Shown here: positions 5,375 to 60,367 of the stretch, one piece after another
How the letters are laid out: each line of letters opens with the position of its first letter
How positions within the stretch are numbered: the stretch's first letter is position 1
From: a phage
Direction: 5' to 3' (one strand)
NCBI GenBank assembly: GCA_026066175.1
Contig: GCA_026066175.1_4721.1
DNA length: 64,000 nucleotides
The notes under the pieces: generated by a model
Seen by the model: only the letters and a program-made list of their open reading frames with translations
Databases searched by the model: none
What the model was told of the DNA's origin: nothing
Position numbers and translations under genes: made by a program

Positions 5375-5412
5375 ATCCTCCTTCCCCGGCCTGATGGCTA
5401 GGGAAGGAGGAT
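5375..5412. terminator. GC-rich hairpin, likely bidirectional intrinsic terminator (ATCCTCCTTCCC-loop-GGGAAGGAGGAT)
   Basis: Perfect 12-bp inverted repeat with 14-nt loop between convergent genes, flanked by A10 and T-rich tracts; same arms recur at 52920-52957 with the loop reverse-complemented. Confidence 0.6.
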
Positions 5413-5422
5413 TATGGTTTAT

Positions 5423-5962
5423 TTACTGTTGGTTCTTAGCTTCACGAATGAAAATGACATCAGGGTATTCTTGGGATTCAATGAATTCAGGATTACGATA
5501 ACGACGAATATGACGCATTGTCGTACAAGCAAGTTTGTAAAGATGTTCCTCCTCACGTTGTGTTAATAACATCAGTTGCGCGTCTGGAATCACGAATGGG
5601 AGTCTTTCATTCACGTATTCCCGAAGGTCATCGAGATCATCGTGATGAATGCCCTCTGAGAGCTTATATAACGCTTCCAGCAATTCTAATCCACCGAACT
5701 GGTAACTTCCTATTGTCGTCTTAAACAATGCGCCAGAACGCGTGGTGGATGCTCTATCGGCGACATCGTATTGTTCTAACATATATCCGTAGACCATGCT
5801 ACGTCGATCCAGTGTATCCGTAACGAGATTACGCCACCGTTCCAGTCTTTCGAGCGCTTTGTCGATAGAGTAAACGATCATGCCATGTTCATCCAACTCT
5901 TCCGCAATACCCAATAGTTCATTGTTGTTAGGTTTTGCTGCACCGATAAGAAAAACACTCAT
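5423..5962 (-). CDS. hypothetical protein
   Basis: 179 aa ORF; start ATG overlaps the stop of the upstream gene (TAATG), suggesting translational coupling. Confidence 0.65.
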   Translation of the reverse strand: MSVFLIGAAKPNNNELLGIAEELDEHGMIVYSIDKALERLERWRNLVTDTLDRRSMVYGYMLEQYDVADRASTTRSGALFKTTIGSYQFGGLELLEALYKLSEGIHHDDLDDLREYVNERLPFVIPDAQLMLLTQREEEHLYKLACTTMRHIRRYRNPEFIESQEYPDVIFIREAKNQQ

Positions 5963-6375
5963 TACTCAAACTCCTTATTCCAAAACTCGATTAATGAATC
6001 GAGCTGTTCCTTACTGGTTATCTCACCTCCCCTAACAAAATGAAATCGTTCCTGAATGGCGATCTTTTCAAGGATATCGGTAAGCAAATGACGGTGACAG
6101 AAATTTCCTGCAGGACAATAACACCCTAACACCACAACAGGATGGGAGAATAAAACCAACCATTCCGGTGTATGATCAACAAAGCTTTTGCGCATAAGCG
6201 CGTAGTAGCCTGTGGTATATTCATCCTCGGTTAACGTTTTTGATTTGATTCCTGTAACAAGTTCCCATGAAGGTGCGAAGAGTGGGTTACCTGTTTTCAC
6301 CGTCGTGTCCAGTAGGAACGCTCGTGTGTCTGAAAGCCAACGATGTTTGGCTAATTGAAGGGTGTATAAAAACAC
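5962..6375 (-). CDS. DUF488/DUF4326-like protein (conserved C-x-C...CHRH motif)
   Basis: 137 aa ORF containing VVVLGCYCPAGNFCHRHLL, resembling the LLC-x-C...CHR signature I recall for DUF488-type proteins; not database-verified. Confidence 0.45.
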   Translation of the reverse strand: MFLYTLQLAKHRWLSDTRAFLLDTTVKTGNPLFAPSWELVTGIKSKTLTEDEYTTGYYALMRKSFVDHTPEWLVLFSHPVVVLGCYCPAGNFCHRHLLTDILEKIAIQERFHFVRGGEITSKEQLDSLIEFWNKEFE

Positions 6376-6414
6376 AGCGCTAACCCCAAAGGATAAAAAT
6401 AAAACCTTGACATA

Positions 6415-6450
6415 ACCACCACCGCAACCCCATACAGGGCTACGGTGGGG
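6415..6450. terminator. imperfect GC-rich hairpin downstream of minus-strand gene 6481..6960
   Basis: ACCACCG...CGGTGGGG inverted repeat followed by T-rich tract on the transcribed strand. Confidence 0.4.
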
Positions 6451-6480
6451 TTTATACAGAGAGACGAGTTAAATTACAAA

Positions 6481-6960
6481 TTAGCCTTTCAGCAGCTCAG
6501 CTGCATATGCACTGATGTTATCGCGAATATGCTTAACCTGAGTTGTTGGGAAGGATTTCTTATACGCGGTAGTCAGACGTCCGTAAACCTGTTTCTTCTC
6601 GTTAGAGCCGAAACCAACTTCAGCGCTACGTTGAACGGTTGCTGATACAACGTCTTTACCCAGCGGCAGCGTAACAGAAACAACGTCAACCTGCTTGTTG
6701 TCTGCCATGAACTGCGCACCAACGCGACCCACTGCCAGGCCATGAGCCAGACCGATGTCTGTTGTCAGTTTCTGTGCTTTTTCCAGGATTTCTTTTTCTT
6801 CTGGTGTTACCAGCGTACCAATGAAATCACTGCCCAGCTTCTGGCTACCTGATTCGTCCAGTTTGAGACCAGCAGCGATTTTATCAGAAAGAGCCTGAAC
6901 TTCCGGACGTACGTTAGAAGTGGTTTCAGTCGCTACGGTGGTTTCTACTGCTTCAGACAT
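6481..6960 (-). CDS. hypothetical protein
   Basis: ORF track 6481..6993 trimmed to ATG (MSEAVETT...) with GGAG SD; lies ~120 nt downstream of a TATATTAC-type motif on its strand. Confidence 0.65.
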   Translation of the reverse strand: MSEAVETTVATETTSNVRPEVQALSDKIAAGLKLDESGSQKLGSDFIGTLVTPEEKEILEKAQKLTTDIGLAHGLAVGRVGAQFMADNKQVDVVSVTLPLGKDVVSATVQRSAEVGFGSNEKKQVYGRLTTAYKKSFPTTQVKHIRDNISAYAAELLKG

Positions 6961-7080
6961 GTTAGTACTCCAATTAGTTTTTCGATCGATCAAAAGGATA
7001 AAATCAGAAGATTCTTTTCTTCATAGGGAAAACACAAGTCGGTTAAGGTTTACTTCTCAAACTCCTTGCGTTCTATCAGT

Positions 7081-7095
7081 TAGGTAATATAGACC
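7081..7095 (-). promoter_or_regulatory. candidate phage early promoter motif (GGTCTATATTACCTA on the transcribed strand)
   Basis: Plus-strand TAGGTAATATAGACC; one of five copies of GTAATATAG(C/T)C, all placed so that TATATTAC reads toward a downstream minus-strand gene start. Confidence 0.45.
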
Positions 7096-7893
7096 TCAAC
7101 TTTTTTCCAATAATGCCGCAACGGAACGGGCGAATCGGATAACCTTGTAGTTGCGTGTCTGTGTGACATCTTCCCCATCGCTGTCCTCTTCGGACGGATC
7201 TTCCCACGTGAACTCTTGTTCCTCCGCTTTCTGGAGGTAACGATACAACTGCACCATACTGCGGGCTGTCGGAGAGATCGCTTGAAGTTCAGTTAAGTCA
7301 TCTTCCGTCAACAACACGTGCGGTGAACGCAGCGGTTCCATCGTGGTATTGCATAACAGACGAATCAGAAGATCCACGCATGGAATAATCGAACCTGGTG
7401 ACGCGATTTCAGGATGCAGCGTATACTGCCAATATACAGTGTTGTAATACGTCAATACCGCAGGTAACGACGGGTGTTCCATTACACGTGCGATTTGCTG
7501 TCTTACGATTGATGCGCGATCATTCAGAACATCAAGCGTGATCTGTTGTGGTTCCATCACCGCCATTGAAATGCCGTATGCGTCAGCCACGCCCAGGATT
7601 TCATGAAGGGACTGATGTTCTTCTTCAACAGATGTTGTTCCAACGGCTTTACGTCCAGCCAGCTCAATAAGCATGGGTGTAACGGTCTCTTTAACCGCGT
7701 TAAAAGAAGCCTGGTAAGCATGCTTGTGGAGATACAACGTCCAGGCTAATGCACGTTCTGCCGTATGCAGAAGATCAACATAAGACAGATCTTGATAACA
7801 AGGTCCGTATACGCTTACGGCAAGCTTGGTGGCTTTCTCGGATGCAGCCATAATAGCATCCGGTGATTTAGGCATATCGCGTTCTTCTTGCAT
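7096..7893 (-). CDS. hypothetical protein
   Basis: 265 aa ORF from track; no motif recognised. Confidence 0.65.
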   Translation of the reverse strand: MQEERDMPKSPDAIMAASEKATKLAVSVYGPCYQDLSYVDLLHTAERALAWTLYLHKHAYQASFNAVKETVTPMLIELAGRKAVGTTSVEEEHQSLHEILGVADAYGISMAVMEPQQITLDVLNDRASIVRQQIARVMEHPSLPAVLTYYNTVYWQYTLHPEIASPGSIIPCVDLLIRLLCNTTMEPLRSPHVLLTEDDLTELQAISPTARSMVQLYRYLQKAEEQEFTWEDPSEEDSDGEDVTQTRNYKVIRFARSVAALLEKS

Positions 7894-7904
7894 CTTTTTA
7901 ATTC

Positions 7905-7994
7905 CTACTCAACAAAAGGTTCGTGTTCGACATCACGTGTCATGTATCCGTAGAATAATGAGTCCTGGTAAGCTTTTACATCAAAAGACGGCAT
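7905..7994 (-). CDS. possible small ORF (29 aa, MPSFDVKAYQDSLFYGYMTRDVEHEPFVE)
   Basis: Found by manual translation; ATG preceded by GAGGAGG SD at ~10 nt spacing; too short for the ORF track. Confidence 0.2.
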   Translation of the reverse strand: MPSFDVKAYQDSLFYGYMTRDVEHEPFVE

Positions 7995-8177
7995 AAAAAG
8001 TACCTCCTCACCCACAAGGGGCAAGGAGGTTCGTCCATCACGACGGAAGGACGTTATGTGACGCGGTGTCCATAACGGCCCTGGTAGCAGGCATTAAAGA
8101 TAACAAAAAGGATGTAAGTTGAGCTAAACCACCTAAATACGGTAACGATGACTTCCGTACACAATATACTGCAACAC

Positions 8178-8987
8178 TTACCACTGGTTAAAGCTACCCG
8201 CTTTAACGACATCGCAACGCAGATGGTTACGTAACTGATCCAGGAAGACAACCGGGCTATCGCCGGATAGCATGGTCAGGGCATGTTGTCCACCGGAACG
8301 AACAACCAGCTCATCAACCATCGGTGCGGTAATCGGAAGATCGTACGCATCCATGATGGCTTTAGCTTCCTGTTCGAGGTCTTTCTGGAAGCCTTCCATC
8401 GTTGGAGAGTCGTATTTGGTTGCAAACTCGATCCCCGGTAAGTTGACATAATCGTACGTCATAACGCGGGTCATTACACGACGTCGCTCATGTTGCCAAA
8501 TCTGAGGATCGGTTAACGCGCGTACTGAAAAACACACGTTCACCAACGGCGTTTCAAAGTCTTTACGTAACGCATCACCATACGGACCACAAGGAATAAC
8601 ATCCCCCATCACCATCACGACAGGACGACCACGACGGTCGCGTCCTGATTCCTCTAACCAAATCTTAGAAAAGCAATGGCTTACCTTGGTTTCTTCGATT
8701 CGTAATGCACGCTGTAAAAAACTGGTTGCATCCTGACCAACTTCTGGTTTCGGATGACCGTACTCACCTTTCAATGAACGGTTACGTGCATTCGTTTGCA
8801 ATAAGCTGTTTTCTAAGAACAGCGGTTTCGAACGTTCAAGTTCGTAATATTCTTCGGTATTGTTAAAGCAGTTAAATCCGCCTATGACACAGGTGTAGGC
8901 ACCGTCGGCGTTAGGACGGATAATGCCTTTCTTATTTACACCAAGATAACTGGTGCAAACAAGATTACTAATTGGTGGTTGCATCAT
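8178..8987 (-). CDS. hypothetical protein
   Basis: 269 aa ORF with AAGGGG SD. Confidence 0.65.
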   Translation of the reverse strand: MMQPPISNLVCTSYLGVNKKGIIRPNADGAYTCVIGGFNCFNNTEEYYELERSKPLFLENSLLQTNARNRSLKGEYGHPKPEVGQDATSFLQRALRIEETKVSHCFSKIWLEESGRDRRGRPVVMVMGDVIPCGPYGDALRKDFETPLVNVCFSVRALTDPQIWQHERRRVMTRVMTYDYVNLPGIEFATKYDSPTMEGFQKDLEQEAKAIMDAYDLPITAPMVDELVVRSGGQHALTMLSGDSPVVFLDQLRNHLRCDVVKAGSFNQW

Positions 8988-9020
8988 AACCCCTTAATAA
9001 GCAACTAAATGAAAACACGA

Positions 9021-9752
9021 TTACCACGCATACGATCCAGCGCTTTGATGTCCTAAAAGGACCAACGCATCATCTTTAGCAGCCAGGTATTTATCCATTG
9101 TAATTTTCGTTACCGACACATTGGAAAAATCCATAACCCCCAACCGATGATCGTAATGGTTAATTTGCATTCGGTAATACCCTTTCTTTACAACCAGGAA
9201 CTCACCTTGACGCAACCATAACGGAACATCATCGACTTCCGCATGAATGTAGAACACAGGACACTCTGTCGATACGGAGCTGTCTTTTCCGTCTTTGTCC
9301 TTGATCTTACCCTTGGGTATAGCCGCAATAAAACATTCACCGATACGTTTGGTGTGGTAACCTTCCGGGTATCGTGGGTCGTGAAATAACCAATGTTCGT
9401 CACTGATATCAACATCGGATAACAGCGTACGATGAGGACGTAATGCAAGATCGAACGGAACCCGATAGATGACATACCCACCTAACCAGTGCGCGAGATT
9501 ACCCCCAGAGTAGTACTGCTTAATGGCGGTGCTGTAGCCGTATATGCAACCCATCAGACTGCTGGATACACAAATCCGTGGAAACGAACCATCCTCCATC
9601 CTCAAGGTACGCTGAGGAATACGAGGTGTCATCGTTGTCAATTCGGTATCGGTGCTGATGTGTAATAAGCCGAACGGTAACGTTCTGCTGGGTACCCACG
9701 CACAGCGTTCCATAATCGCTCTTGGGACAATTGTCTCGATAGTCGATAACAT
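9021..9752 (-). CDS. hypothetical protein
   Basis: 243 aa ORF with GAGGGGG SD. Confidence 0.65.
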   Translation of the reverse strand: MLSTIETIVPRAIMERCAWVPSRTLPFGLLHISTDTELTTMTPRIPQRTLRMEDGSFPRICVSSSLMGCIYGYSTAIKQYYSGGNLAHWLGGYVIYRVPFDLALRPHRTLLSDVDISDEHWLFHDPRYPEGYHTKRIGECFIAAIPKGKIKDKDGKDSSVSTECPVFYIHAEVDDVPLWLRQGEFLVVKKGYYRMQINHYDHRLGVMDFSNVSVTKITMDKYLAAKDDALVLLGHQSAGSYAW

Positions 9753-9753
9753 A

Positions 9754-10464
9754 TTACCCCCTCAGAATCGCTTCTGTTTCGCTGATCGTATCCGCAGGAT
9801 AAACCAAACTACTGTCGATGGCGTTATTGACATAACCACCCATTAAGTTGGTGATGGTGTTTGTACCGCTATCGATGATGTTTCGTAATCCGATATCGAT
9901 GGCTTTTAACGTGCTGCGTTCCTCATCCGAAAGCAAACGCCATGCCCGACGACGGTCGTTGGGATCACGCGTGGTGATAGACGCCAGAACAGAATAAATG
10001 CTGCTGTCTGCGTTCAGCTTAACTCCGGCTAATTTTGCAGAGGTATACAACAACTGGTATTTCTCTTTCTCGGTATACCACCATGGTACCTTACCGAGTG
10101 TGTAGATCTCGTTATACATCAACCAAGGAAAAGAGTTGCGCATAACAACATCGGTCGATACCAACACGGTATCACCTGGAAGAAAGACAAATTCATAAAA
10201 CGGTTGACCATCCATGGTAATCTCACGGATGTCGGACGGGTCGATATGGAGCTGGGTCAATGCGTGGCTGACACCATACTGACCATCAGGAAGAAGAATC
10301 GGGCAGCATGCACATACCCGGTTCTCGCTCCCGATGATAGATAAACCCAATCCTTCGTAACGGACGGGTGTCAGAATTGAACACCCGCCTCGTGTCACAA
10401 CGGATTTATCTTCTTGTATGTCCCAGTCCGCCAGTACCGCAGCACCGTTGCGGACAAGCGCCAT
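9754..10464 (-). CDS. hypothetical protein
   Basis: 236 aa ORF; ATG immediately after the TAA of the upstream gene with GAGGTG SD. Confidence 0.65.
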   Translation of the reverse strand: MALVRNGAAVLADWDIQEDKSVVTRGGCSILTPVRYEGLGLSIIGSENRVCACCPILLPDGQYGVSHALTQLHIDPSDIREITMDGQPFYEFVFLPGDTVLVSTDVVMRNSFPWLMYNEIYTLGKVPWWYTEKEKYQLLYTSAKLAGVKLNADSSIYSVLASITTRDPNDRRRAWRLLSDEERSTLKAIDIGLRNIIDSGTNTITNLMGGYVNNAIDSSLVYPADTISETEAILRG

Positions 10465-11985
10465 TTACACCTCGCTAATCTGAATAACGTAAAGCTGCTG
10501 GGCCACGTAATCGGTGGTCAGATGCATCGTTGCGATCGTTGCCGCTTCGAAAACGGTAAGCTCGGGACGTTCGCGCATGATCAAATCGATTTCATCGATC
10601 AAACGGTTAACGCCCTGGGCGTCTTCATGATGCATGACTTTGACGTATAGCGTACGGAAGTATTGCTGGAAATTAGCCACGTCGGTATCGGTCAGATTAG
10701 CCACTTCACCGCGTACGATTTCCAACACTTTCTTACGGGTGTCTTCATCGAGGTCTACCGTAATCAAATCAGCAAATACACCCTGCAGCGCCAACGCGTA
10801 TGCGCGTAAGCGGTTTGCAGCTTGCTGGCTGGCTTTCATGTTAATGTAGTTACGATAGTGCTGCATGAAGCCTGCACCGTTCGCTAACAGTTCATCTTTG
10901 CTTATGAGTTCACGTTCCAACAGAACCGCTGCGGTTAATGCTTCTGGTGAACCACCTTCTTGCAGATAACTCATGTAGACATCGGCGTTAACGAAGATCG
11001 TCATCGTTGATGCATCTTCGGCACGTTGAATCTGAGATGCGGATGGCGCAGAAAGAATCAGTTCACCACGCTCCATACGCAGGATACGATCACGACCAAT
11101 ACGTGCCATCCCGTTGATCGCTGCACTACGGGCCTGTTGCATCTTCGCACGATAGTTCTCGAGCATCATGTCGTTACCGTCCTGGATATCTTCCAGTAGG
11201 TTAACCGCCCACATATAGCAGAGGAAAGCCGGGGTTGCAGCGGCACGTGAACCCTGGAAGGCGACGTTGTCGCTATCCGGATACGCGATCAGGAAAACGT
11301 TGTTGGTAGCGGATGCCGAACCACGGAAGAAATGGTTGTAAATATCTTCCAGTGCTTGATCGCTCATTCCTTCGGTTGCTTGCTGGACGAAACGGTCCAG
11401 GTTTTCATTACCGGTATACAACAAAGTGCGGAGTTTGTCGCCGGTGATATAGGCCAGCTTCTCGGTTGGGGTAAACTCATTGTTAACATCGATCAGGCCG
11501 TTAAGGTTATACTCACCCACCAACGCCTGATATTCTTCAGAGTTATAAAACTCAGGATAGTAACTCAAACTTACTGTCGGGATCAGTTTAGGTGCCAGGA
11601 TGATCGCGTCGATGCGTTTTTCCAGTTCCGGGTACAAGGCACGGCATTTCGGCAGGATGGTATTACGCGCCAGCTCTTTGGCATACACCACCTTTTCCAC
11701 CACGTCTTGAACTGCGGTCTGTAAAACTTCATCATGAATATAAACCTCGCGTTCGCCAGCAGGTCGTACGACACCGTCCTCGGTTTCATCAAGGGTTTCA
11801 GCGACCACCACACGCTCAGCACTCAGCTGTACTAATGCATCAGCATCTTCTGGCGGTTGGTTCCAATGCATAGTTTCACAAACCGCAGCAAGCGGGGTAC
11901 CTGGAATTGCTGCAACGATCTGGTTGCGTTTAATAAACCCTTCAACGATCGGCTCAACGGCATAAACGGTTTTATTGGTAATCAT
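10465..11985 (-). CDS. hypothetical protein (506 aa)
   Basis: Long ORF in the same operon as 9021..12218; no convincing motif. Confidence 0.65.
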   Translation of the reverse strand: MITNKTVYAVEPIVEGFIKRNQIVAAIPGTPLAAVCETMHWNQPPEDADALVQLSAERVVVAETLDETEDGVVRPAGEREVYIHDEVLQTAVQDVVEKVVYAKELARNTILPKCRALYPELEKRIDAIILAPKLIPTVSLSYYPEFYNSEEYQALVGEYNLNGLIDVNNEFTPTEKLAYITGDKLRTLLYTGNENLDRFVQQATEGMSDQALEDIYNHFFRGSASATNNVFLIAYPDSDNVAFQGSRAAATPAFLCYMWAVNLLEDIQDGNDMMLENYRAKMQQARSAAINGMARIGRDRILRMERGELILSAPSASQIQRAEDASTMTIFVNADVYMSYLQEGGSPEALTAAVLLERELISKDELLANGAGFMQHYRNYINMKASQQAANRLRAYALALQGVFADLITVDLDEDTRKKVLEIVRGEVANLTDTDVANFQQYFRTLYVKVMHHEDAQGVNRLIDEIDLIMRERPELTVFEAATIATMHLTTDYVAQQLYVIQISEV

Positions 11986-12218
11986 TACTGCGCTCCCTCC
12001 AACGCGTTGTTACGTACCGGCTCTTTGGTTTCCAGACGGCTGTTCAAGCGCGCAGCAACCGCATCTTCCAATCCCAACGGCATAACCTTTTTATTCACAT
12101 CAGGATCCGCTGCATCGTTACCGACGGTCTGACGGACGACCTCAGCAACCAACGTTACCGCGTTCGTCAGCGCAACAAAGCTCGCTGCCCGAGCCGTATT
12201 AAGTTGTTCTTGGTTCAT
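11985..12218 (-). CDS. hypothetical protein (77 aa)
   Basis: Short ORF from track, first gene after the terminator hairpin at 12253-12278; 1-nt overlap with the downstream gene. Confidence 0.45.
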   Translation of the reverse strand: MNQEQLNTARAASFVALTNAVTLVAEVVRQTVGNDAADPDVNKKVMPLGLEDAVAARLNSRLETKEPVRNNALEGAQ

Positions 12219-12252
12219 TCACTTTTCCTTTACCACGTTCAGCGAAATAAAT

Positions 12253-12278
12253 GAGCAGGGGCATAACGCCCCTTGCTC
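12253..12278. terminator. hairpin terminator after the RNAP beta-like fragment
   Basis: GAGCAGGGGC-ATAAC-GCCCCTTGCTC stem-loop, followed by a U-rich tract on the minus-strand transcript, directly after the stop at 12279. Confidence 0.55.
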
Positions 12279-13409
12279 TTATTTGGCTTCATTAAAATAA
12301 ATATCAACGGCACGTTCCGTTGCGTAGAGAAGACCCAGATTCACGGTCCCTACCACTTCCGGTGAACCGATGATACGGTTAGCGATACTGGTGCCACTGA
12401 AGATAGCATCAAGGGTGTGCCCGTCTTCGGTTTTGTTCACACCATGACCCACGGAAGAGACAACGGATTTCGCCTGTGCGGCGAAGGTACCTTTATCCCC
12501 CATTCCCGCACCAAGGTCGTAACGCATGAAAATACGGATCGCGATCTGGTTCTCACCTAACGGATTACCGTCTATTCTCACGTTACTGTTATTGATGCGT
12601 CCCGTTGTTGCTTCGTTGAGTTTCAGTTCCTTAACACGTTTAGCTCGCGCCTTATCAGCGTCACCCACAAGTGCTGCCATGGTTTCGCTCATGTCTTCAA
12701 TCTGAGCGCGGTACAACACATCGATCTGTACGACTTCACCATGCACGTCAGCGCGTGGGTTATACTGACTCATACGGCGTAACGCTTCAACCGCTTCCTG
12801 ACTTTCATCGCTCAGATCGGTTGCAATAGGTTCTTCCAGTGTTGCCAGGATCGTCCGAGGTTCAACATGATCGCCGATTTTCACCAAACCACGAATGTTG
12901 AGATGAGCGTCAACAATGAGCGTACGGCTCTTAATCGATGGGGTTACGAGACGATCGGCAAGATTGTCGAAGATATACGAACTGTCCTCGTGCGTTTCTG
13001 GAATATCCAGAATACCAACCAGAGACAACACGCCTGCGCGCCAAACAACCTGACCTGGGTTCCACCAATCCCGTTTAAAATAAAGACGATGGAAAACCAC
13101 TACATCCTGGTCCTTAACGCGATCCCCGACTTTATAATCGGTAATGAGATCGTGAGGATAATACTTACCTGGTCCTTTCCCGATTATCGTACCGAGTTGG
13201 AAAACCTCTTCCCCTAATTCTGGATCGTCGTATTGTATCGTAAGCGCTGTTTTGGTGACCTTCTTCACAACACCATCGCCTTGAGCAGCTGCTGCGAAGA
13301 GTTTACCAACACGATGCGCGATAACAGTCTCGCCACCAGTGCGCCATGGTTGTACGTCGTAACCTTCAGCGGCTATCATGCGGTTGTGTTGGATGCCTAT
13401 AAACACCAA
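12279..13409 (-). CDS. multisubunit RNA polymerase beta-like subunit, central fragment (possible downstream exon)
   Basis: By-eye alignment to bacterial RpoB: FIGIQHNRMIAA resembles the conserved ANRALMG segment; IRIFMRYDLGAGMGDKGTFAAQAKSVV resembles [26 protein letters not shown]. Track start is TTG with no SD and the frame is open for 8 codons upstream, consistent with an exon. Not database-verified. Confidence 0.5.
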   Translation of the reverse strand: MVFIGIQHNRMIAAEGYDVQPWRTGGETVIAHRVGKLFAAAAQGDGVVKKVTKTALTIQYDDPELGEEVFQLGTIIGKGPGKYYPHDLITDYKVGDRVKDQDVVVFHRLYFKRDWWNPGQVVWRAGVLSLVGILDIPETHEDSSYIFDNLADRLVTPSIKSRTLIVDAHLNIRGLVKIGDHVEPRTILATLEEPIATDLSDESQEAVEALRRMSQYNPRADVHGEVVQIDVLYRAQIEDMSETMAALVGDADKARAKRVKELKLNEATTGRINNSNVRIDGNPLGENQIAIRIFMRYDLGAGMGDKGTFAAQAKSVVSSVGHGVNKTEDGHTLDAIFSGTSIANRIIGSPEVVGTVNLGLLYATERAVDIYFNEAK

Positions 13410-13733
13410 TCTCTTGGGCGAATTTAGTTCTTATTCAGTATTAACATACCGTTACCGAAATAAGACTGAGATTAGATTGTTCAGATAAGGTCGTTAATCT
13501 TATCCCGGAGGTGATGATAGGCACATCACCTCCCGCTTACGTTCTCACGCAAGAGCAGACTATATCACATCTCGTTTCAAACGGTGCTTCTTCAGCACCT
13601 CAACGAGAGTTCACTTCTTCCCAGCGCATCCAGCGCCATTCTCTTATCCAAGGAGAATGCCTCACTCGAGGGGTACAGGGGGATGAATCCCTTAGTCGTT
13701 GAACCGTCACCCTAGAACGTTTCACAACGATCC

Positions 13734-14945
13734 TTAGGCGATTGGCTGCGGATTACCCTTGGCCTGCGGACCACGAACTTTTGTCGCGGTCAACTCTTCA
13801 TTTTTAAAGCCTGCTTCACGAGCAATACGTCTCGCTTCTCGCACGTCTAACGTTTCCGTTTCCGCTTTGGCTGAAGGCAGCATTGGGCGTCCCCGCAATT
13901 CAATGAATCTCGTCCATACGTCACCGTATAAACGGACCCGCTCTTTGTAAACAGAATAGTAGATATAACGTTTTCCGTCAGGAAATTTAGTCATTCCATC
14001 CGACTTTAAACGGTAATTGAGTAACGTAGTAGATATACCCATTTCTTCAGCGCAATCGACGGCCGAAAGGTACAACAGAGGTACATCATTTTCAGGAATG
14101 ACGACAATAGCACGTTTGTTGGTTGTCTTCTCCAACTCCAGGATACTATCTTCGACTTCTCGCCATGGCGTCTCATCAGTAACCCACTTAACTTGATAAC
14201 AACCATTAACGACAGGTTGGTTCTTGTCGTTAACGTACATCGACGCAGTGGATAACTTAACACCAATGTGATTCGCGAATTCAGTCAATGATTCGAAAAG
14301 ATGAATCTCTTTTGTTATCGTTGACCTTGCAATCACACCCTTACTTCCCGTATCCGTCAACGTTGCTAACTCGTATTTGGTGGGAATACGCCATGGTTCA
14401 TCGCCGTAATCTTTGCGGTACTGCTTACGTTCAGGAAACGCTCGCTGTTTGCCTCTATAGACACGATGATGAATGAAGTCGATATTCACACCAAGATCGC
14501 GTGCCGCTTCCGTCATGGATGGATATCTGGTTACAACACCGGTATCAACATCACGAACCTGAATAGGTTTACCGTAGGCAGCAATTGAACGTTTACGCAT
14601 GTTCATAATGCGAGCATGCTGATTGTTCTCTTTCTGCGTAACCCATTCAAGATTGTCATTCTCGGCGTTACCGTCGGGATCAAGGTAGTTATTAAGTCTG
14701 TTGCCGTCCTTGTGGTTCACATGGAGCAAATGCGCATCATCGATGTTACGGAACGTTAACATTAGAAGCCTGTGCATGGAACGGTAAACCAATGTTCCAT
14801 CGTGACCTCGAAACGAATAACGATAATACCCAGCAATGATGGTGGGCAAATATTCAAACTTCGATTCCTTGTTACGCAATGTTCCATCTATGGATATCTC
14901 CAGGAACGGGAATTCCGGTACGGTCTTAAATACCTTCTCACTCAT
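13734..14945 (-). CDS. HNH homing endonuclease with NUMOD-like DNA-binding repeats
   Basis: HVNHKDGNRLNN...NLEWVTQKENNQHA HNH motif near the N-terminus; three helix-turn-helix-like repeats (TEAARDLGV, TEFANHIGV, VDCAEEMGI). AAGAGGAA SD before the ATG and a TATATTAC-type motif ~45 nt upstream. Confidence 0.8.
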   Translation of the reverse strand: MSEKVFKTVPEFPFLEISIDGTLRNKESKFEYLPTIIAGYYRYSFRGHDGTLVYRSMHRLLMLTFRNIDDAHLLHVNHKDGNRLNNYLDPDGNAENDNLEWVTQKENNQHARIMNMRKRSIAAYGKPIQVRDVDTGVVTRYPSMTEAARDLGVNIDFIHHRVYRGKQRAFPERKQYRKDYGDEPWRIPTKYELATLTDTGSKGVIARSTITKEIHLFESLTEFANHIGVKLSTASMYVNDKNQPVVNGCYQVKWVTDETPWREVEDSILELEKTTNKRAIVVIPENDVPLLYLSAVDCAEEMGISTTLLNYRLKSDGMTKFPDGKRYIYYSVYKERVRLYGDVWTRFIELRGRPMLPSAKAETETLDVREARRIAREAGFKNEELTATKVRGPQAKGNPQPIA

Positions 14946-14985
14946 TGACTATATTCCTCTTGTGCAGTGAAACTAACTACACTTT

Positions 14986-14997
14986 CGTAATATAGCC
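14986..14997 (-). promoter_or_regulatory. candidate early promoter motif upstream of the HNH gene (GGCTATATTACG on the transcribed strand)
   Basis: Plus-strand CGTAATATAGCC in the 75-nt gap between the beta-like ORF stop and the HNH start. Confidence 0.4.
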
Positions 14998-15020
14998 TTA
15001 ATTCTGTTTACATTGAAGCC

Positions 15021-18230: not shown

Positions 18231-18233
18231 GAG

Positions 18234-28931: not shown

Positions 28932-28967
28932 AGCCCTCCTCCTTCCCTTCCGGGTTGGAGGAGGGCT
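28932..28967. terminator. GC-rich hairpin (AGCCCTCCTCC-TTCCCTTCCGGGTT-GGAGGAGGGCT), bidirectional terminator candidate
   Basis: 11-bp inverted repeat between convergent genes 26776..28917 (+) and 28972..30039 (-). Confidence 0.6.
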
Positions 28968-30039: not shown

Positions 30040-30121
30040 CACGTCCTCCTGAAAAAGAAAAAAGAAATACGGCATAAAGCCTACCCACACAATGGTGGGT
30101 AGGCTAAGATCAACATCGATG

Positions 30122-37144: not shown

Positions 37145-37180
37145 CCCACCCTACTACCCCATTGAGGGCGGTAGGGTGGG
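37145..37180. terminator. hairpin CCCACCCTAC-loop-GTAGGGTGGG, bidirectional terminator candidate
   Basis: Perfect 10-bp stem between convergent genes, followed by a T-rich tract. Confidence 0.55.
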
Positions 37181-41146: not shown

Positions 41147-41148
41147 TT

Positions 41149-41781: not shown

Positions 41782-41813
41782 CCCTCCTCCTTCCCTTACG
41801 GGTTGGAGGAGGG
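41782..41813. terminator. GC-rich hairpin (CCCTCCTCC-TTCCCTTACGGGTT-GGAGGAGGG) followed by A16
   Basis: Perfect 9-bp arms; the inner loop can itself form CCC/GGG around a UUAC (GUAA on the opposite strand) tetraloop; between convergent genes. Confidence 0.6.
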
Positions 41814-45292: not shown

Positions 45293-45320
45293 AAGCCTGT
45301 CCTTCGGGGCAGGCTTTTAT
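45293..45320 (+). terminator. intrinsic terminator (AAGCCTGTCC-TTCG-GGGCAGGCTT + TTTT)
   Basis: Classic stem-loop plus T-tract 5 nt after the stop of 44466..45287. Confidence 0.65.
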
Positions 45321-45934: not shown

Positions 45935-45966
45935 CATCCTCCCAACCCGTAAGGGAAGGGAGGATG
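45935..45966. terminator. GC-rich hairpin (CATCCTCCC-AACCCGTAAGGGAA-GGGAGGATG)
   Basis: 9-bp arms; the loop is the reverse complement of the loop at 41791-41804; between convergent genes. Confidence 0.55.
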
Positions 45967-46613: not shown

Positions 46614-46629
46614 TCCCCGCTCCAATTAA

Positions 46630-51806: not shown

Positions 51807-52895
51807 ATGGGTGATCAGGCAACGGATAACCGTACAAAAGGGAGCCAACTCGCTCCGGATAACAACGTCAGCGTTTTTCGTATTTTTGCCTTGGGTACTG
51901 TAGCAGCTGACTTTTCCAACAAAAGCCTGGAAGAAGACCCTAATCAAACGCTGGAAGTCTTTCTCGATGAAATGATGTCAGGCGCTGACGGGAAAGTTGA
52001 AGCAGCTGGAAGCGTTAAGGAAGTGAGTGCGACAGACGCACAAGGAAACAGCTATACAGCAAAGGCTGCAACAACAACCAGCGTACAATGTTACTGGTTA
52101 CCATTCGGAAGCAACCGCATGACCGCACCTAACTTAAGGAAAGGTCAACGTGTGGTGGTTTGGCGTACCGCGGATGAAGAACAGCTTTATTGGCAGCCTA
52201 AAGGGGGCGATAGTGAGCTGATGACCATGGAATCGGTGATTCTTACCGTGAGCGCACGTCCGAGCGCGAAGAAAGATCGTAAGTCGATTTCCACCGAAGA
52301 CTGTTACTACCTCATGGTCGACACGTTCCTCAAGAAAGCCGTTATCGGCACCAGCGCCCAGCTTGGTGAAGTCACGCAGGTATACATGGAACTGAACTTG
52401 GATGAAGGCTATCTACAGGTGGCGGATAGCGTTCATCAAAACCTGTTGTTGCTGCATTTCGTTGAACACATGCTGCGTTATCAAAACCAAGATGACAGCA
52501 TCATTGATGTAACGAAGAAAAACATCACGTTCCAATGCGAAGACACACTCAAAGTTATCGCTAAGAACGATATCCGGATGAAAGCGAAAAACATCTATAC
52601 GGAATGCGAGAATTTCGAACGGACAAGCAAGACAGAGAAAGTAACCAGTCAGAACGTTTCATTGAAGTGTGAACGCTATACCGCACAGGTCTCTGGACAA
52701 ACCACGTTCAAATGTCCGAAAACGGTATTCACTGGTGCGGTAAGCTTCACCGGTGAAGACGGCAACACCATGACGTTGAATGGAAACTTCGTGCATGTAG
52801 CGGGGTCTTGGCGTTCACCATCAGGAACCAACGTCTACACGCACGATCATGGTGGCGTAGAACGTGGTGGTGGTAAAACAGATCCGTTCCATTAA
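51807..52895 (+). CDS. putative tail spike / cell-puncturing protein (beta-helix-like repeats, C-terminal HDH motif)
   Basis: C-terminal third has repetitive short beta-strand-like segments (KNITFQCEDTLKVIAKNDIRMKAKNIYTECENFERTSKTEKVTSQNVSLKCERYTAQVSGQTTFKCPKTVFTGAVSFTG) ending in YTHDHGG, reminiscent of gp5/gpV-type spikes with metal-binding His; pattern-based only. Confidence 0.35.
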   Translation: MGDQATDNRTKGSQLAPDNNVSVFRIFALGTVAADFSNKSLEEDPNQTLEVFLDEMMSGADGKVEAAGSVKEVSATDAQGNSYTAKAATTTSVQCYWLPFGSNRMTAPNLRKGQRVVVWRTADEEQLYWQPKGGDSELMTMESVILTVSARPSAKKDRKSISTEDCYYLMVDTFLKKAVIGTSAQLGEVTQVYMELNLDEGYLQVADSVHQNLLLLHFVEHMLRYQNQDDSIIDVTKKNITFQCEDTLKVIAKNDIRMKAKNIYTECENFERTSKTEKVTSQNVSLKCERYTAQVSGQTTFKCPKTVFTGAVSFTGEDGNTMTLNGNFVHVAGSWRSPSGTNVYTHDHGGVERGGGKTDPFH

Positions 52896-52919: not shown

Positions 52920-52957
52920 ATCCTCCTTCCCTAGCCATCAGGCCGGGGAAGGAGGAT
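52920..52957. terminator. GC-rich hairpin, same arms as 5375-5412 with reverse-complemented loop
   Basis: ATCCTCCTTCCC-TAGCCATCAGGCCG-GGGAAGGAGGAT preceded by A12 and followed by TTATGGTTTATTTA, the same flank as the 5375 copy. Confidence 0.6.
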
Positions 52958-52970: not shown

Positions 52971-53360
52971 TTAACGGATTGCGTTTTGGATGATTTCTTT
53001 TCCGATCGTAATCAAAGCAGGTATCTGTACTGCGGTTGCACCTTGATGACGAAACGCGGTCGCTAACGCGGTATCGATGCTCACAGCACGTCCGTGAAGA
53101 CGATCGAAATAGACTTGAGTGATAGCAGCGGCATACTCTTTTCGCTGTTTCTTGGTTTGGTTTACCATCGTCGCACTACTACCGACGATGAAATAAGCGA
53201 TTAAGAAGAATGCGGCTGACCGTGAGCCGGGTAGAAAGCCTTGGCGTTTAGGAAGCATTTCACAATCACGAACAGTAATACTGTTCGTGAGCTTTTCCAT
53301 GTCGACATGGCATAATTTTGCATAGGTGTGAAGATGATGGGTAAAAGTAGAATTTAACAT
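52971..53360 (-). CDS. hypothetical protein with one hydrophobic helix
   Basis: 129 aa ORF with GAGGAAAGAA SD; last gene of the minus-strand operon that starts at 59523. Confidence 0.55.
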   Translation of the reverse strand: MLNSTFTHHLHTYAKLCHVDMEKLTNSITVRDCEMLPKRQGFLPGSRSAAFFLIAYFIVGSSATMVNQTKKQRKEYAAAITQVYFDRLHGRAVSIDTALATAFRHQGATAVQIPALITIGKEIIQNAIR

Positions 53361-56873: not shown

Positions 56874-56953
56874 TTTAGATCTCTCTTTGTTATTGGTAAA
56901 ATAAATAACGGCATAAAGGGGACATAACTGCCCCCGTGTTAAATATCAACTGT

Positions 56954-57796
56954 TCACGCTTTCAGATCTGAAATATCCCAACGTACGTAACCGGTACGCT
57001 CAATGTCGTCAACCAGTTGCTTGGTTTGATTTTCAACACCAACGACAGGCACCCAATTTAAACGCCAGCGCCCACCGACATTAACCTCAACACGCTGCAG
57101 ATCTTCATTCCAACAAACCCCATTCGGTCTCAAAAAGCCCATCGGGTGGACGAAGTCCTCATCGTAATCTTTCAATAGCGCGAGAATATCGCTTCGGCTA
57201 TAAGTCTTCACGCTTGCTAGATGTACGCTTTGTAGCTTATCGCGCAGACCCCAACCATACTCACAATCACGCCATTCAGGCATGACAACCGGCAGTACAT
57301 TCCGATGACGGATGTATTTTGCCGCTTCAGCAATATCAGCTGGAAGATGTATCCAACCTAAATCGCTGTTAGCAATAAAATCAGGACTGTCCATTTCATG
57401 GATGTAATGATCGTAAAGCGTAGCAGCGAGTCCTTCAGCAAGCACGTTTGTTGGAAGGAGGCAGTTGGCGCTTATCTTGAAATCGAATACATCGGCATCA
57501 GGATCCACATACGCGTAAAACCCGCGTGCGAAAGCGCCGCCATGTTCTTTGAAGCAGTACTGGAATACATTGTTTTGCATTCCGATGGGGTGGTAGTAAG
57601 CCAACACACGTTGTTCGCCGTCCGTGATTTCAATGAGCTGATCTTTCGGCTTCGGCCAGGTGATCTTCTCAACACCGCAAACGCTGACGATCTTTCGTAG
57701 ATTCACCTTGATATGTTCCGGGAGATGCCCGATTTCATTTTCATGATAAACACGGGTGATAACGGTATTGATAACCGGCTGTGGTTTAGCTATCAT
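56954..57796 (-). CDS. paralog family B protein (280 aa), unknown function
   Basis: AYYHPIGMQNNVF, GWIHL, VLPVVMPEWRD, DKLQSVH, FVHPMGF, WVPVVG, GYVRWDISDL; GAGGAA SD. Confidence 0.6.
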   Translation of the reverse strand: MIAKPQPVINTVITRVYHENEIGHLPEHIKVNLRKIVSVCGVEKITWPKPKDQLIEITDGEQRVLAYYHPIGMQNNVFQYCFKEHGGAFARGFYAYVDPDADVFDFKISANCLLPTNVLAEGLAATLYDHYIHEMDSPDFIANSDLGWIHLPADIAEAAKYIRHRNVLPVVMPEWRDCEYGWGLRDKLQSVHLASVKTYSRSDILALLKDYDEDFVHPMGFLRPNGVCWNEDLQRVEVNVGGRWRLNWVPVVGVENQTKQLVDDIERTGYVRWDISDLKA

Positions 57797-58703: not shown

Positions 58704-58770
58704 TTTTATTTCTCCTGCTGTTTTACGATGCATCGTTTTGCTCCTGTGGTTCTTTGTTTTCGGTATCGTG

Positions 58771-59523
58771 TTATGCCTGGCGTAGCATGGTAACGTCCCA
58801 TCGTACCAGCTTGCTTCGCTCAAGCATCCCCTGCGCATGCGCAACGCTTAAGTCCGACGGCACCACCACCGGCAACCAACGTTCGTTAAGCACCTTCGCT
58901 TCCAGCCGCTGCTTGCGTTTGTTGTAACGCACCTCGCTAACCCATGCATAACCGAAAGGATGGATAACCCGTAGGTAGTAACGTTTCAGCATGGCAAGAC
59001 GTTGCTGATAAAGCATATCGGAACCTGCGCTGACGAACAAGGCCACCCGTTCCAACCGCCTGGTGTAATACGTTCCAACGGTATGGTTGATCCAACCCGG
59101 AAGCACCAGTTCATCAGGCGTATCCGCCCATGAGGTATCGTGCACCTCACCGCTATACACCGTCCCAGTCACCTGGCCCGATGCGTCCAACAACGACCGT
59201 GGTAAATCATCCGCGGTAGGATACAACCATGCATCATCAAGTCGCTCCCCCGATGCAAGCACGCGTAACCCGCTTGCGCTTACCCGCGATGGATGCTGGC
59301 TCTTATGCGCACGCAATGACACCACAGACAGATCCGTTGGATGAGCAAGACAACACCCCCGCTGACGGAATAACCCAACCGTACCATCCACCCCTTCGAT
59401 CATGCTTCCTTCCAAACCGTCCCACCAGTAGTTTACCTGCACGCATTCTGCTTTCACTGCCTCAGGCAACAGTAAATAGTCACGTTCAATGAACACGGTA
59501 TCAAAAATGATTTTATCGCTCAT
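58771..59523 (-). CDS. paralog family B protein (250 aa), most diverged member
   Basis: VIHPFGYAWVSEVRYN, WLPVVV, LVRWDVTML align with the other three; AAGGAA SD; first gene downstream of the motif at 59608-59622. Confidence 0.55.
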   Translation of the reverse strand: MSDKIIFDTVFIERDYLLLPEAVKAECVQVNYWWDGLEGSMIEGVDGTVGLFRQRGCCLAHPTDLSVVSLRAHKSQHPSRVSASGLRVLASGERLDDAWLYPTADDLPRSLLDASGQVTGTVYSGEVHDTSWADTPDELVLPGWINHTVGTYYTRRLERVALFVSAGSDMLYQQRLAMLKRYYLRVIHPFGYAWVSEVRYNKRKQRLEAKVLNERWLPVVVPSDLSVAHAQGMLERSKLVRWDVTMLRQA

Positions 59524-59607
59524 GGATAAAGTTCCTTGTTTTCACGTTGTTTGATTAACGTACTGATTTCTATTTGACAGAAGACGAACATTGTACGCAT
59601 CTATCAC

Positions 59608-59622
59608 GTAAGTAATATAGCC
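59608..59622 (-). promoter_or_regulatory. candidate early promoter motif (GGCTATATTACTTAC on the transcribed strand)
   Basis: Plus-strand GTAAGTAATATAGCC, ~90 nt upstream of the start at 59523; 20-mer TAAGTAATATAGCCGTGAAA is identical to 44343-44362. Confidence 0.45.
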
Positions 59623-59734
59623 GTGAAAGGATTTGTATTACAGAAAGGATATTTGTTTTCTAAGAAGGGATGGTTACCAGGAAGGAGGTTATCGATAGGT
59701 GTATTTCAAGGAAGGTTTAAGAGGATAGGTATTG

Positions 59735-59905
59735 TTGTTTTGTTTATCTTAGTTTGTCTATGTATTCGTTTAATGTGTTATCTTAGTTTTAATGATCTTT
59801 TCAAAAGTGTTATCATGTTTATCTTAGGTTATATTTTAATTGCTTTAAGTTATTTGTTTTATCTATCTTGTTATCTTGTTTAAGTTGTTAATTGCTTATC
59901 TTCAA
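59735..59905. repeat. cluster of at least 8 direct repeats of TTATCTT(A/G) in an AT-rich noncoding region
   Basis: Copies read at ~59745, 59779, 59805, 59819, 59860, 59865, 59872, 59894; embedded in a ~800 nt region with no credible ORF. Confidence 0.5.
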
Positions 59906-60335
59906 AACAATGGATAACATGTGTTTACTACAACTTCAGTAACACATGTCATCTGTGCATTACACTACGTTACATGCTTATAATCAGATAACTCTAAAAA
60001 ACCATTTGTGATACTCTTCTTCACGTTGTTCATCAGAGTATCTCGTCTACACTTGCTTCGCGCGTATACGACATCACCGTTAACGCTAACGCTACGCTTA
60101 TAGCTTATAACTCTAAGGATAAAAACATAAACTCGCTTCGCTCGTTTAGTTTTTCTTTTTCTTAGAGTTATCCTGTTGCTCGTCTCTAAAGGACTTCGCT
60201 CCTCCCCCGTCCCCCGAAGGGGCCGAGGTCGTGGAAATTTTACTTTCCAAATACATTTACAACGTCTGTAAACTTTTACCGACACATACCTAATCTTATA
60301 TTTAAATATTAGAAAAAGAGAAAATACGAACATAA

Positions 60336-60367
60336 CCCTCCTCCTTCCCTGATGGGTTGGAGGAGGG
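60336..60367. terminator. GC-rich hairpin (CCCTCCTCC-TTCCCTGATGGGTT-GGAGGAGGG)
   Basis: Perfect 9-bp arms, immediately downstream of the stop of minus-strand gene 60385..61278. Confidence 0.55.

Follow-up and report, generated by a model that had tools for sequence, protein, structure and literature searches.

Bipartite GC-rich hairpins with invertible inserts are predicted transcription terminators in Goslar-like jumbo phages

Genomic context and comparison set

The DNA analyzed here, a 64,000-nucleotide stretch of contig GCA_026066175.1_4721.1 (hereafter the window), matches Escherichia phage Goslar at 82-95% identity with a colinear gene order. By its sequence, the window belongs to a chimallivirus: a nucleus-forming, Goslar-like jumbo phage that infects E. 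coli. Genes for RNA polymerase beta- and beta-prime-like subunits are annotated in the Goslar (Goslarvirus) record, which is syntenic with the window; by this comparison the elements described below reside, as phiKZ-type terminators do, in a chimallivirus that has virion and non-virion RNA polymerases of its own. We compared 15 orthologous hairpin sites across approximately ten Goslar-like genomes, the closest relative of the window being contig JACXXQ010000003.1 (L217), with 98.7% identity. Terminator features in the Goslar record (GenBank MK327938) are predictions only; the orthologues of the window hairpins at 37145, 52920 and 62162 are annotated there as putative terminators. The Goslar genome contains approximately 25 copies of the hairpin family, and its record breaks exactly within one of them, most simply through misassembly of a repeat.

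A family of bipartite hairpins

Eight intergenic hairpins of the window are built to one design: a perfect outer stem of 9-12 bp, with a CCTCC-type 5' arm and a GGAGG-type 3' arm, encloses a 2x2 mismatch, either AA/AA or TT/TT, followed by an inner CCC/GGG stem with a tetraloop (Table 1). The initial annotation had listed nine hairpins lying mostly between convergent genes. All nine are present at their coordinates, and seven of the eight family members have a convergent context, the exception being the minus-strand unidirectional copy at 60336. The ninth hairpin (26736-26756) was rejected as a family member: it is a simple hairpin of another kind between co-directional genes, in which the purine arm precedes a loop of 3 nt. 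Pyrimidines make up at least 80% of the 5' arm, and its GC content is at least 55%, in all eight window copies and in the approximately 25 copies from Goslar. The abundance of the family is far above chance: the pattern CYYCCWWCCCNNNNGGGWWGGRRG occurs four times in the window against 0.00 expected occurrences, and 15 GC-rich perfect stems of at least 9 bp are observed against 1.41 +/- 1.29 in dinucleotide shuffles.

Table 1. Predicted terminator hairpins of the window, with the genes that they adjoin, their sequence elements and the predicted fold energies of the two strands
Feature	Coordinates	Strand	Gene context	Sequence elements	Fold energy (kcal/mol)
Bipartite terminator hairpin (predicted)	5375..5412		between convergent 4463-5353(+) and 5423-5962(-)	arms ATCCTCCTTCCC / GGGAAGGAGGAT, insert CGGCCTGATGGCTA; stem-to-TATG distance 0 nt (+), 4 nt (-)	-30.8 / -30.7
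Unidirectional terminator, same class (predicted)	8002..8030	minus		G.U pairs; minus-strand 3' flank tttTATGCCGT (7995-7988)	-24.5 minus, -19.9 plus
Bipartite terminator hairpin (predicted)	28932..28967		between convergent 26776-28917(+) and 28972-30090(-)	arms AGCCCTCCTCC, insert TT-CCC-TTCC-GGG-TT, flanks CATAG and TATG	-34.5 / -32.4
Unidirectional terminator (predicted)	30078..30105	minus		AGCCTACCCAC / GTGGGTAGGCT, then tTATGCCGT (30076-30069); same in Goslar	
Related hairpin	37145..37180		between convergent 36294-37136(+) and 37188-37619(-)	arms CCCACCCTAC, 16-nt insert, inner stem CCCC/GGG(G)	-27.3 / -28.3
Bipartite terminator hairpin (predicted)	41782..41813		between convergent 41143-41775(+) and 41889-42590(-)	CCCTCCTCC-TTCCCTTACGGGTT-GGAGGAGGG, then cTATGCCGT and A16 run	-27.1 / -27.0
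Unidirectional terminator (predicted)	45293..45316	plus	3' of 44448-45287(+)	AAGCCTGTCC-TTCG-GGGCAGGCTT, one G.U pair, then tTATGCCGT (45318-45325)	-18.5 plus, -14.0 minus
Bipartite terminator hairpin (predicted)	45935..45966		between convergent 45622-45930(+) and 45984-46625(-)	CATCCTCCC-AACCCGTAAGGGAA-GGGAGGATG, then aaaTATGCCGT	-23.5 / -24.6
Bipartite terminator hairpin (predicted)	52920..52957		between convergent 51807-52895(+) and 52971-53360(-)	arms as in 5375; insert TAGCCATCAGGCCG	-30.1 / -31.2
Unidirectional terminator (predicted)	56918..56935	minus	3' of 56954-57796(-)	minus-strand 3' flank ttTATGCCGT (56915-56908)	-14.0 minus, -10.1 plus
Bipartite terminator hairpin (predicted)	60336..60367	minus	3' of 60385-61278(-)	CCCTCCTCC-TTCCCTGATGGGTT-GGAGGAGGG	
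Imperfect relative	62162..62195		between 61420-61962(+) and 62257-62892(-)	arms CCCCTCC / GGAGGGG with imperfect continuation; plus-strand fold stronger	-30.6 plus, -21.9 minus

RNA folding, which had been suggested as a check, predicts stable structures of -22 to -35 kcal/mol across the window hairpins, nearly equal on the two strands (a gap of at most 3 kcal/mol in seven of the eight copies). In these folds the apparent loop is itself structured, comprising the 2x2 mismatch, an inner stem of 3-4 bp and the tetraloop. Comparison of the outer stems across copies reveals compensatory double changes at 5 of the 12 pairs; 98.2% of cells are paired, and the family arms show no single-sided (G.U) change in the same pair-by-pair comparison. 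Unlike these arms, other, unidirectional predicted terminators of the window contain G.U pairs and fold more weakly on the opposite strand. The 2x2 mismatch and the inner CCC/GGG stem are invariant in all copies compared, and the tetraloops are limited to RNNA when read in the A-rich sense, GTAA being the commonest. A purely neutral insert does not explain the constant mismatch and the restricted tetraloops.

Probable inversion of the insert

The hairpins at 5375 and 52920 have identical 12-bp arms, share 13 downstream bases (TATGGTTTATTTA) and are both preceded by an A-run, and their 14-nt inserts are exact reverse complements of each other. The inserts at 41782 and 45935 are likewise exact reverse complements, and neither is a palindrome. 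Both relationships had been noticed in the initial annotation and hold to the base. Among the Goslar-like genomes, at least one flip is found at 12 of the 15 orthologous sites. Seven cases are clean small inversions, in which the 14-nt insert is exactly reverse-complemented between unchanged arms and flanks: Goslar sites 4149, 48107 and 174267 in genome B, 97885 in genome C, 93445 in L204 and 134586 in H and L298, and the window site 41782, where L217 carries the insert AACCCGTAAGGGAA. Site-specific arms are kept exactly in flips, e.g., CATCCTCCC at 4149 and 174267 and AGCTCCTCC at 97885, and several flips are common to independent assemblies.

Other window sites show a similar polymorphism. 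The hairpin at 45935 is the same in Goslar and genome A and cleanly flipped in genome B; the orthologues of 28932 have the AA orientation in Goslar (224384) and the TT orientation in genomes A and B and the window; the orthologue of 52920 (Goslar 11186-11220) has a flipped insert in genomes B and E. At 5375, the Goslar orthologue (200229-200265) differs in its arms as well as in the orientation of the insert. No flip was seen among the compared relatives at the 37145 site (Goslar 232609-232644, annotated 'putative transcriptional terminator'), which displays loop substitutions only, and at 62162 (Goslar 17603-17637) the changes in relatives restore or break the palindrome.

These comparisons support inversion of the loop in place at orthologous sites, between the inverted-repeat arms, as had been proposed from the window copies. 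Because the arms form a perfect inverted repeat, the 14-nt insert could be inverted where it stands, likely through a replication template switch or recombination between the arms. Since both orientations fold about equally well, a flip would be nearly neutral and could segregate among related phages. The insert orientation in Goslar is biased 13:2, which is not expected from unconstrained flipping and counts against purely unconstrained flips.

Each flip might instead result from gene conversion or inter-locus template switching, the donor being a family paralogue aligned in inverted register, which the palindromic arms make possible. Several sites point to such exchange: the window hairpins at 5375 and 52920 are the same over 38 nt bar the flip, with different arms in the Goslar orthologue of 5375; the window hairpin at 60336 matches the Goslar hairpin at 237246 over 32/32 nt, while Goslar and genomes A, B, D, E and F keep other arms (CCTTCCTCC) in the opposite orientation at this site; the whole hairpin at Goslar site 93445 varies between genomes within conserved flanks; a 4149-type hairpin is nested within the resident hairpin of contig QZLZ01001428.1 (L260); and many flipped inserts carry the common GTAA tetraloop. 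As an account of the flips themselves this is possible but doubtful, since the seven flips with exact site-specific arms and flanks are simplest as in-place inversion, and an intramolecular event needs no donor in matching relative orientation. Replacement of a whole hairpin by a paralogue nevertheless seems to occur, and in-place inversion would then be accompanied by occasional overwriting of one copy by another.

Position, flanking motif and predicted termination

A family hairpin is located at each of the seven non-overlapping convergent junctions of the window, whereas only one of approximately 49 co-directional junctions has one. The stems start 5-30 nt past stop codons. Within approximately 9 nt of the stem, TATG is present in 45 of 72 flanks overall and in 11 of the 16 flanks in the window, against a background of approximately 2%; the consensus of the flank is TATG-Y-Y-G-T, and TATGCCGT lies 3' of six window hairpins. 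The motif is found on both sides at 5375, 28932, 41782 and 45935. At 60336 it occurs only on the minus-strand 3' side, and this copy is therefore predicted to be unidirectional. Roughly ten co-directional sites, identified by comparing the listed flanks with the gene table of Goslar, all carry TATG on the transcribed side, and one of them also on the other side.

A stable GC-rich hairpin just past the stop codon, shared by both convergent transcripts, resembles canonical intrinsic terminators. No contiguous U run adjoins the stem at the window hairpins, where the first 10 nt contain 2-7 T, and the U runs at 5375 and 52920 (minus strand) begin 8-10 nt from it. A canonical U-tract (Rho-independent) terminator was thus rejected: the conserved TATG(YYGT) stands in the position of the U-tract.

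The same arrangement is known from related phages. In phiKZ, the motif 5'-BCCYCCCCHWWDGGGRRGGBYTTATKYYGT-3' is found at 61 termination sites mapped by ONT-cappable-seq, and bidirectional terminators occur where genes converge (Putzeys et al. 2024, PMC10914365). Phage 201phi2-1 has the same motif (motif A), and eight of its terminators were validated in vivo (PMC11512511). The window copies display both the CCYCC/GGRGG arms and the TTATKYYGT-type flank. Both groups have a GC-rich stem whose 5' arm is rich in pyrimidines and whose 3' arm is rich in purines, with (T)TATGYYGT as the 3' flank; both are placed at gene 3' ends, including bidirectional convergent cases, in a chimallivirus with its own multisubunit RNA polymerases. 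By contrast with the phiKZ stem of approximately 7 bp and a tetraloop, the Goslar-clade stem is longer and bipartite (9-12 bp outer, 2x2 AA/AA or UU/UU, 3-bp inner); its arms are perfectly palindromic, so that one element would serve both strands.

We infer termination from this homology and from the genomic context. One hairpin per convergent junction, near-equal folds and strictly Watson-Crick arms support the bidirectional terminators of the initial annotation, although the canonical U-tract that intrinsic terminators would have is missing. It is very probable, taking both parts together, that the hairpins are the Goslar-clade, mostly bidirectional form of the known chimallivirus (phiKZ-type) terminator and that their inserts invert in place. 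The long bipartite copies at convergent junctions would serve both directions: either transcript would fold the same hairpin, at roughly -25 to -34 kcal/mol, and then reach TATG on its own 3' side. The effect of the hairpin may be termination, 3'-end protection, or both.

The strictly Watson-Crick arms without G.U pairs and the invariant mismatch and inner stem would also suit elements that act as DNA, as cruciforms or protein-binding sites for replication, recombination or packaging, and the break of the Goslar record within one copy could be read in the same way. However, strict pairing is equally predicted by RNA function on two strands or by template switching, and misassembly of a repeat is the simplest reading of the record break. 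The copies invariably sit at the 3' ends of genes, the unidirectional ones carry TATG in a strand-specific manner, and the phiKZ and 201phi2-1 counterparts coincide with mapped RNA 3' ends, which makes a DNA-level role improbable.

The many copies, the near-identical inserts at distant loci and the nested copy in L260 could suggest a mobile miniature repeat (REP/BIME- or MITE-like) inserted either way round, its terminator-like position being incidental. Every site, however, holds a hairpin in each genome covering it, with colinear flanks; neither empty sites nor target duplications, the marks of REP/BIME or MITE elements, were found among the sites and genomes examined. The flank motif tracks the direction of transcription, and the same design is conserved as the phiKZ terminator. 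We give mobility only a slim chance; the spread in either orientation suggested by the initial annotation finds no support as transposition among these genomes, and replacement by paralogues does seem to take place.

Control of translation, in which the Shine-Dalgarno GGAGG of the 3' arm is sequestered by the anti-SD-like CCTCC of the 5' arm, is very unlikely in general and finds no support in the window, where seven of the eight copies lie between convergent genes with no translated gene downstream on either strand, TATGYYGT is kept at these sites although no gene start is possible there, and the sole ORF starting at the TATG of a window copy (59965-60333, downstream of 60336) is not conserved, shrinking to 11 codons in Goslar; it may still apply at three co-directional Goslar sites, where Goslar_00047, Goslar_00167 and Goslar_00183 are annotated as starting at the ATG of the motif, right after a family hairpin.

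Discussion

The TATG that follows the predicted terminators is the core of phiKZ late promoters, where it is bound by the beta-like subunit of the polymerase (PMC4666361, PMC12809450). We tentatively suggest, as a reading with limited probability, that the hairpin and TATG(YYGT) together could form an intrinsic terminator that needs no U-tract and is specific to the non-virion RNA polymerase of chimalliviruses: the beta-like subunit, which binds TATG on the non-template strand at late promoters, would recognize it again during elongation, and this recognition would pause the polymerase a few nucleotides after the hairpin forms, replacing the U-tract. If this is true, the 2x2 mismatch and the RNNA tetraloop are functional rather than neutral. 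Because the four bases past the stem also define the late promoters of phiKZ, it can be tested directly whether the non-virion polymerase terminates there. The predicted terminators provide a catalogue for Goslar-like phages, the E. coli model of nucleus-forming jumbo phages, and suggest that enterobacterial chimalliviruses share the phiKZ design, in which TTATGYYGT follows a pyrimidine/purine hairpin.

Hairpins of non-coding chloroplast DNA are sites of small ('minute') inversions (Kelchner and Wendel 1996, as cited in PMC12371153), and replication template switching gives rise to loop inversions (Monttinen and Loytynoja 2022, PMC8794818). The flips described here resemble both: at orthologous sites, a short segment (4-50 bp) between inverted-repeat arms is found either way round while arms and flanks stay the same, recurrently in related lineages and often at gene 3' ends. 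Unlike the chloroplast inversions, they affect many paralogous terminators of a phage at once, are combined with paralogue replacement and have a high rate, with most sites polymorphic among genomes that are 88-99% identical. The promoter-early stem-loop (PeSL) cassettes of T4-type phages, reportedly described by Arbiol et al. in 2010, are said to be similar in being a repeated, conserved intergenic stem-loop of a large virulent phage that serves as terminator and as recombination substrate between copies. PeSLs reportedly flank variable ORFs and shuffle genes, whereas in Goslar-like phages the genes keep their order and change is confined to the hairpins. The frequent clean flips constitute a natural viral example of inverted-repeat-mediated inversion, and they call for caution in alignment-based phylogeny and SNP calling, because a single flip mimics up to 14 substitutions.

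Relationship to Goslar and comparison genomes

BLAST of a 14-kb piece of the window returned a sole match at 93% identity, the Escherichia phage vB_EcoM_Goslar (Goslarvirus), a nucleus-forming jumbo phage of 237 kb. Window and Goslar are syntenic at 82-95% identity over the whole-window alignment, and the full annotated Goslar genome served as the reference for comparison. Pattern scans supplied other Goslar-like genomes: A and B from IMG/VR, at least five large metagenome contigs (C, D, E, F and H), and fragments; the closest relative of the window is 98.7% identical over 2.4 kb. Orthologous sites were identified through their flanks. Hairpins are named here by their start coordinate in the window or, where so stated, in Goslar.

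Collinear segments of the window and Goslar, and clean loop flips (arms and flanks the same, insert exactly reverse-complemented)
Feature	Site	Counterpart or genome with the flip	Basis
Collinear segment	window 1-41843	Goslar 194856-237307	whole-window BLAST
Collinear segment	window 41789-62906	Goslar 1-18349	whole-window BLAST
Clean flip	Goslar 4149	genome B	
Clean flip	Goslar 48107	genome B	
Clean flip	Goslar 174267	genome B	
Clean flip	Goslar 97885	genome C	
Clean flip	Goslar 93445	contig L204	
Clean flip	Goslar 134586	genome H and contig L298	
Clean flip	window 41782	contig L217 (JACXXQ010000003.1), closest relative of the window	

The Goslar GenBank record starts inside the 41782-type hairpin, and its first and last ~55 bp overlap (window 41789-41843); the record thus seems to have been broken during assembly at a repeated hairpin, rather than to end at physical termini of the genome. 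An A16 run 3' of hairpin 41782 (41828-41843) is kept in relatives. The window also carries a 1.6-kb insertion (13409-15054) not present in Goslar, with the Goslar_00228 orthologue split into 12279-13409 and 15021-18230. It contains a group I intron (Rfam RF00028, 51.4 bits; core 13536-13959, minus strand) and a 403-aa minus-strand ORF (13734-14945), whose NUMOD1 and I-TevI DNA-binding domains point to a homing endonuclease. A Goslar group I intron with an HNH/NUMOD1 gene (Goslar 211817-213710) is missing from the window near 18413-18454.

Structure of the hairpin family

The hairpin family is real: every hairpin listed in the initial annotation was recovered at its position. The copies 5375 and 52920 share identical 12-bp arms, 13 identical downstream bases and an upstream A-run, and their inserts are exact reverse complements, as are those of 41782 and 45935, neither of which is a palindrome. 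The hairpin at 26736, previously taken for a variant, belongs to a separate, simple type. The 14-nt insert between the outer CCTCC/GGAGG-type arms, originally described as a loop, has a structure of its own, comprising a 2x2 mismatch (TT/TT or AA/AA; C/A in the 5375 type), an inner CCC/GGG stem of 3-4 bp and a tetraloop. Predicted RNA folds lie between -22 and -35 kcal/mol, with little difference between the two strands. The family pattern occurs 4 times in the window against 0.00 expected, and perfect GC-rich stems of at least 9 bp number 15 against 1.41 ± 1.29 in shuffled sequences, a design far beyond chance. The Rfam search of the window matched no family at any hairpin, its sole match being the group I intron.

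Pairing of the arms is strictly maintained. Among 19 distinct family hairpins of related genomes, compensatory double changes occur at 5 of the 12 pairs and single-sided changes at none, with 98.2% of cells paired. G.U pairs never appear in family arms; an element that is read from both strands requires just such strictly Watson-Crick pairing. Across the bipartite copies of the window and of genomes A-H, the inner stem and the AA/AA (or TT/TT) mismatch show no variation, and the tetraloop, read in the A-rich sense, is always RNNA (GTAA, GTCA, GTGA, GGAA, ATCA, ATTA, AACA, AGCA), while its middle bases evolve faster than the hairpin flanks. The two insert orientations stand at 13:2 in Goslar and, by our own count, at 6:6 in genome B. 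The invariant mismatch and inner stem, the RNNA tetraloops and the orientation bias in Goslar are hints that the insert may be constrained in some way.

Probable identity as phiKZ-type terminators

Genes were modelled by simple longest-ORF calls checked against the Goslar annotation. Each of the 7 junctions in the window where genes converge without overlapping has a family hairpin, and hairpin 60336 is the only one found among ~49 co-directional junctions. Other, simpler hairpins at co-directional junctions (8002, 30078, 45293, 56918) contain G.U pairs and fold more weakly on the opposite strand. Downstream of hairpin 60336 in the minus sense, several hundred bases (window ~59500-60333, Goslar 14971-15826) hold no conserved ORF and no Goslar annotation.

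The window hairpins lack the U-tract which, placed after the stem, is one of the features that define canonical intrinsic terminators. Instead, 45 of 72 flanks (window and Goslar pooled) have a TATG no more than ~9 nt 3' of the stem, compared with a background of ~2%, and the bases after TATG give the consensus Y-Y-G-T. Over the whole window, the exact 8-mer TATGYYGT shows no enrichment (12 occurrences, 8.9 expected); the signal is its placement directly after hairpins, not the number of occurrences. At ~10 co-directional sites, by our comparison of the listed flanks with the Goslar gene table, TATG lies on the 3' side of the transcribed strand in all, and on the opposite side in one. The CATA...TATG flanks were also considered as a mere extension of the stem, which is rejected since TATG is one-sided at unidirectional sites; the motif therefore tracks the direction of transcription.

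The hairpin with its TATGYYGT flank matches the conserved motif 5'-BCCYCCCCHWWDGGGRRGGBYTTATKYYGT-3' found at 61 ONT-cappable-seq termination sites of phiKZ, for which bidirectional terminators were also reported where genes converge (PMC10914365). Phage 201phi2-1 has a similar motif, with 15 bidirectional terminators, and eight of its terminators were validated in vivo (PMC11512511). Putative terminators are already marked in the GenBank record of Goslar at the positions orthologous to 37145, 52920 and 62162. Scanning IMG/VR by pattern brought up the same CCTCC...GGAGG hairpins, flanked by CATA/TATG, almost exclusively on jumbo-phage contigs, one of them kin of Erwinia phiEaH2 and Salmonella SPN3US-like chimalliviruses. 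A scan with CCTTCCCN{14,15}GGGAAGG was unspecific, yielding at least three useful loci and mostly unrelated contigs among at least 120 matches; a 272-kb contig (locus L018) had no megablast match among GenBank phages. On the motif match, the Goslar annotations and the jumbo-phage hairpins, we file the family as putative terminators, the Goslar-clade version of a known chimallivirus terminator in its mostly bidirectional form, and so a further member of a known family. The initial annotation, which took them for likely bidirectional intrinsic terminators, was thus right in kind, given the convergent junctions, the folds on both strands and the phiKZ motif.

Possible roles of the TATG flank

In phiKZ, the core of the late promoter is TATG, and transcription starts at its G (PMC4666361); the beta-like core subunit of the non-virion polymerase binds TATG in the non-template strand (PMC12809450). 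From the same TATG in the position of a U-tract, we infer that the non-virion polymerase may recognise TATG again while elongating and pause there; the parts of the phiKZ literature available hold no statement linking promoter and terminator TATG. Occurrences of TATGCCGT with no preceding hairpin (2240-2247, 11957-11964 and 12077-12084, all minus strand) may be late-promoter-type TATG, not terminators.

The arms had also been proposed to sequester Shine-Dalgarno sequences, an idea that finds no support at convergent sites, where there is no downstream gene to translate. A start codon in the TATG after 60336 was rejected, because the ORF it would open (59965-60333) is not conserved and spans only 11 codons in Goslar. 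At three co-directional Goslar copies (49776, 152277 and 166927), the ATG in the TATG behind the hairpin is annotated as the start codon of Goslar_00047, Goslar_00167 and Goslar_00183, respectively. Judging by these annotations, the terminator 3' arm may double as a ribosome-binding site at some co-directional Goslar sites, which does not explain the family as a whole.

Flips of the loop

At least one flip is seen at 12 of the 15 bipartite sites represented in two or more genomes, and seven flips are clean (Table). Relative to Goslar, the window is flipped at 5375, 28932 and 60336. Several flips are common to independent assemblies (63715 in A and E; 11186 in B and E; 134586 in four contigs; 224384 in the window, A and B) and are therefore inherited states, not assembly errors. 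The proposed inversion of the loop is supported by the clean flips with unchanged arms and flanks at orthologous sites, and loop-flip polymorphism of the Goslar-like hairpins is, at the level of genome comparison, well documented. The flips would be caused by recombination between the arms or by a template switch in replication, and the sequences fit either. Both routes have precedents, in loop inversions of rRNA and miRNA hairpins (PMC8794818) and in small inversions at chloroplast hairpins (PMC12371153). Turning the insert around alters the fold energy by no more than ~3 kcal/mol, and flips are thus expected to be nearly neutral.

Probable exchange between hairpin copies

Some hairpins differ wholesale between genomes while their flanks are kept. 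Window 5375 equals window 52920 across all 38 nt save the flip, and the arms differ in the Goslar orthologue of 5375. Window 60336 is identical to Goslar hairpin 237246 (32/32), with other arms at this site in six other genomes. These replacements point to occasional conversion between copies. Spread of the element in either orientation, the other proposal of the initial annotation, is not supported: no empty site was seen at orthologous hairpin sites of the compared genomes, and transposition is thus not indicated. Evidence that the TAGCC-type copies evolve strictly in concert is mixed, and is weakened by genome A, which has GTCAA in one copy and ATCAA in another.

At the orthologue of Goslar 97885-97914 in contig L260 (QZLZ01001428.1), a complete hairpin of the Goslar 4149 type, CATCCTCCC-AACCCGTAAGGGAA-GGGAGGATG, is nested within the resident hairpin, and looks like a chimera of two paralogous terminators formed via template switching or recombination. 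At 62162-62195 and its orthologues (Goslar 17604-17636), the changes among relatives make a quasi-palindrome perfect (a 14-bp perfect stem in genome A) or imperfect (Goslar and the window), the pattern expected from quasi-palindrome correction through template switching.
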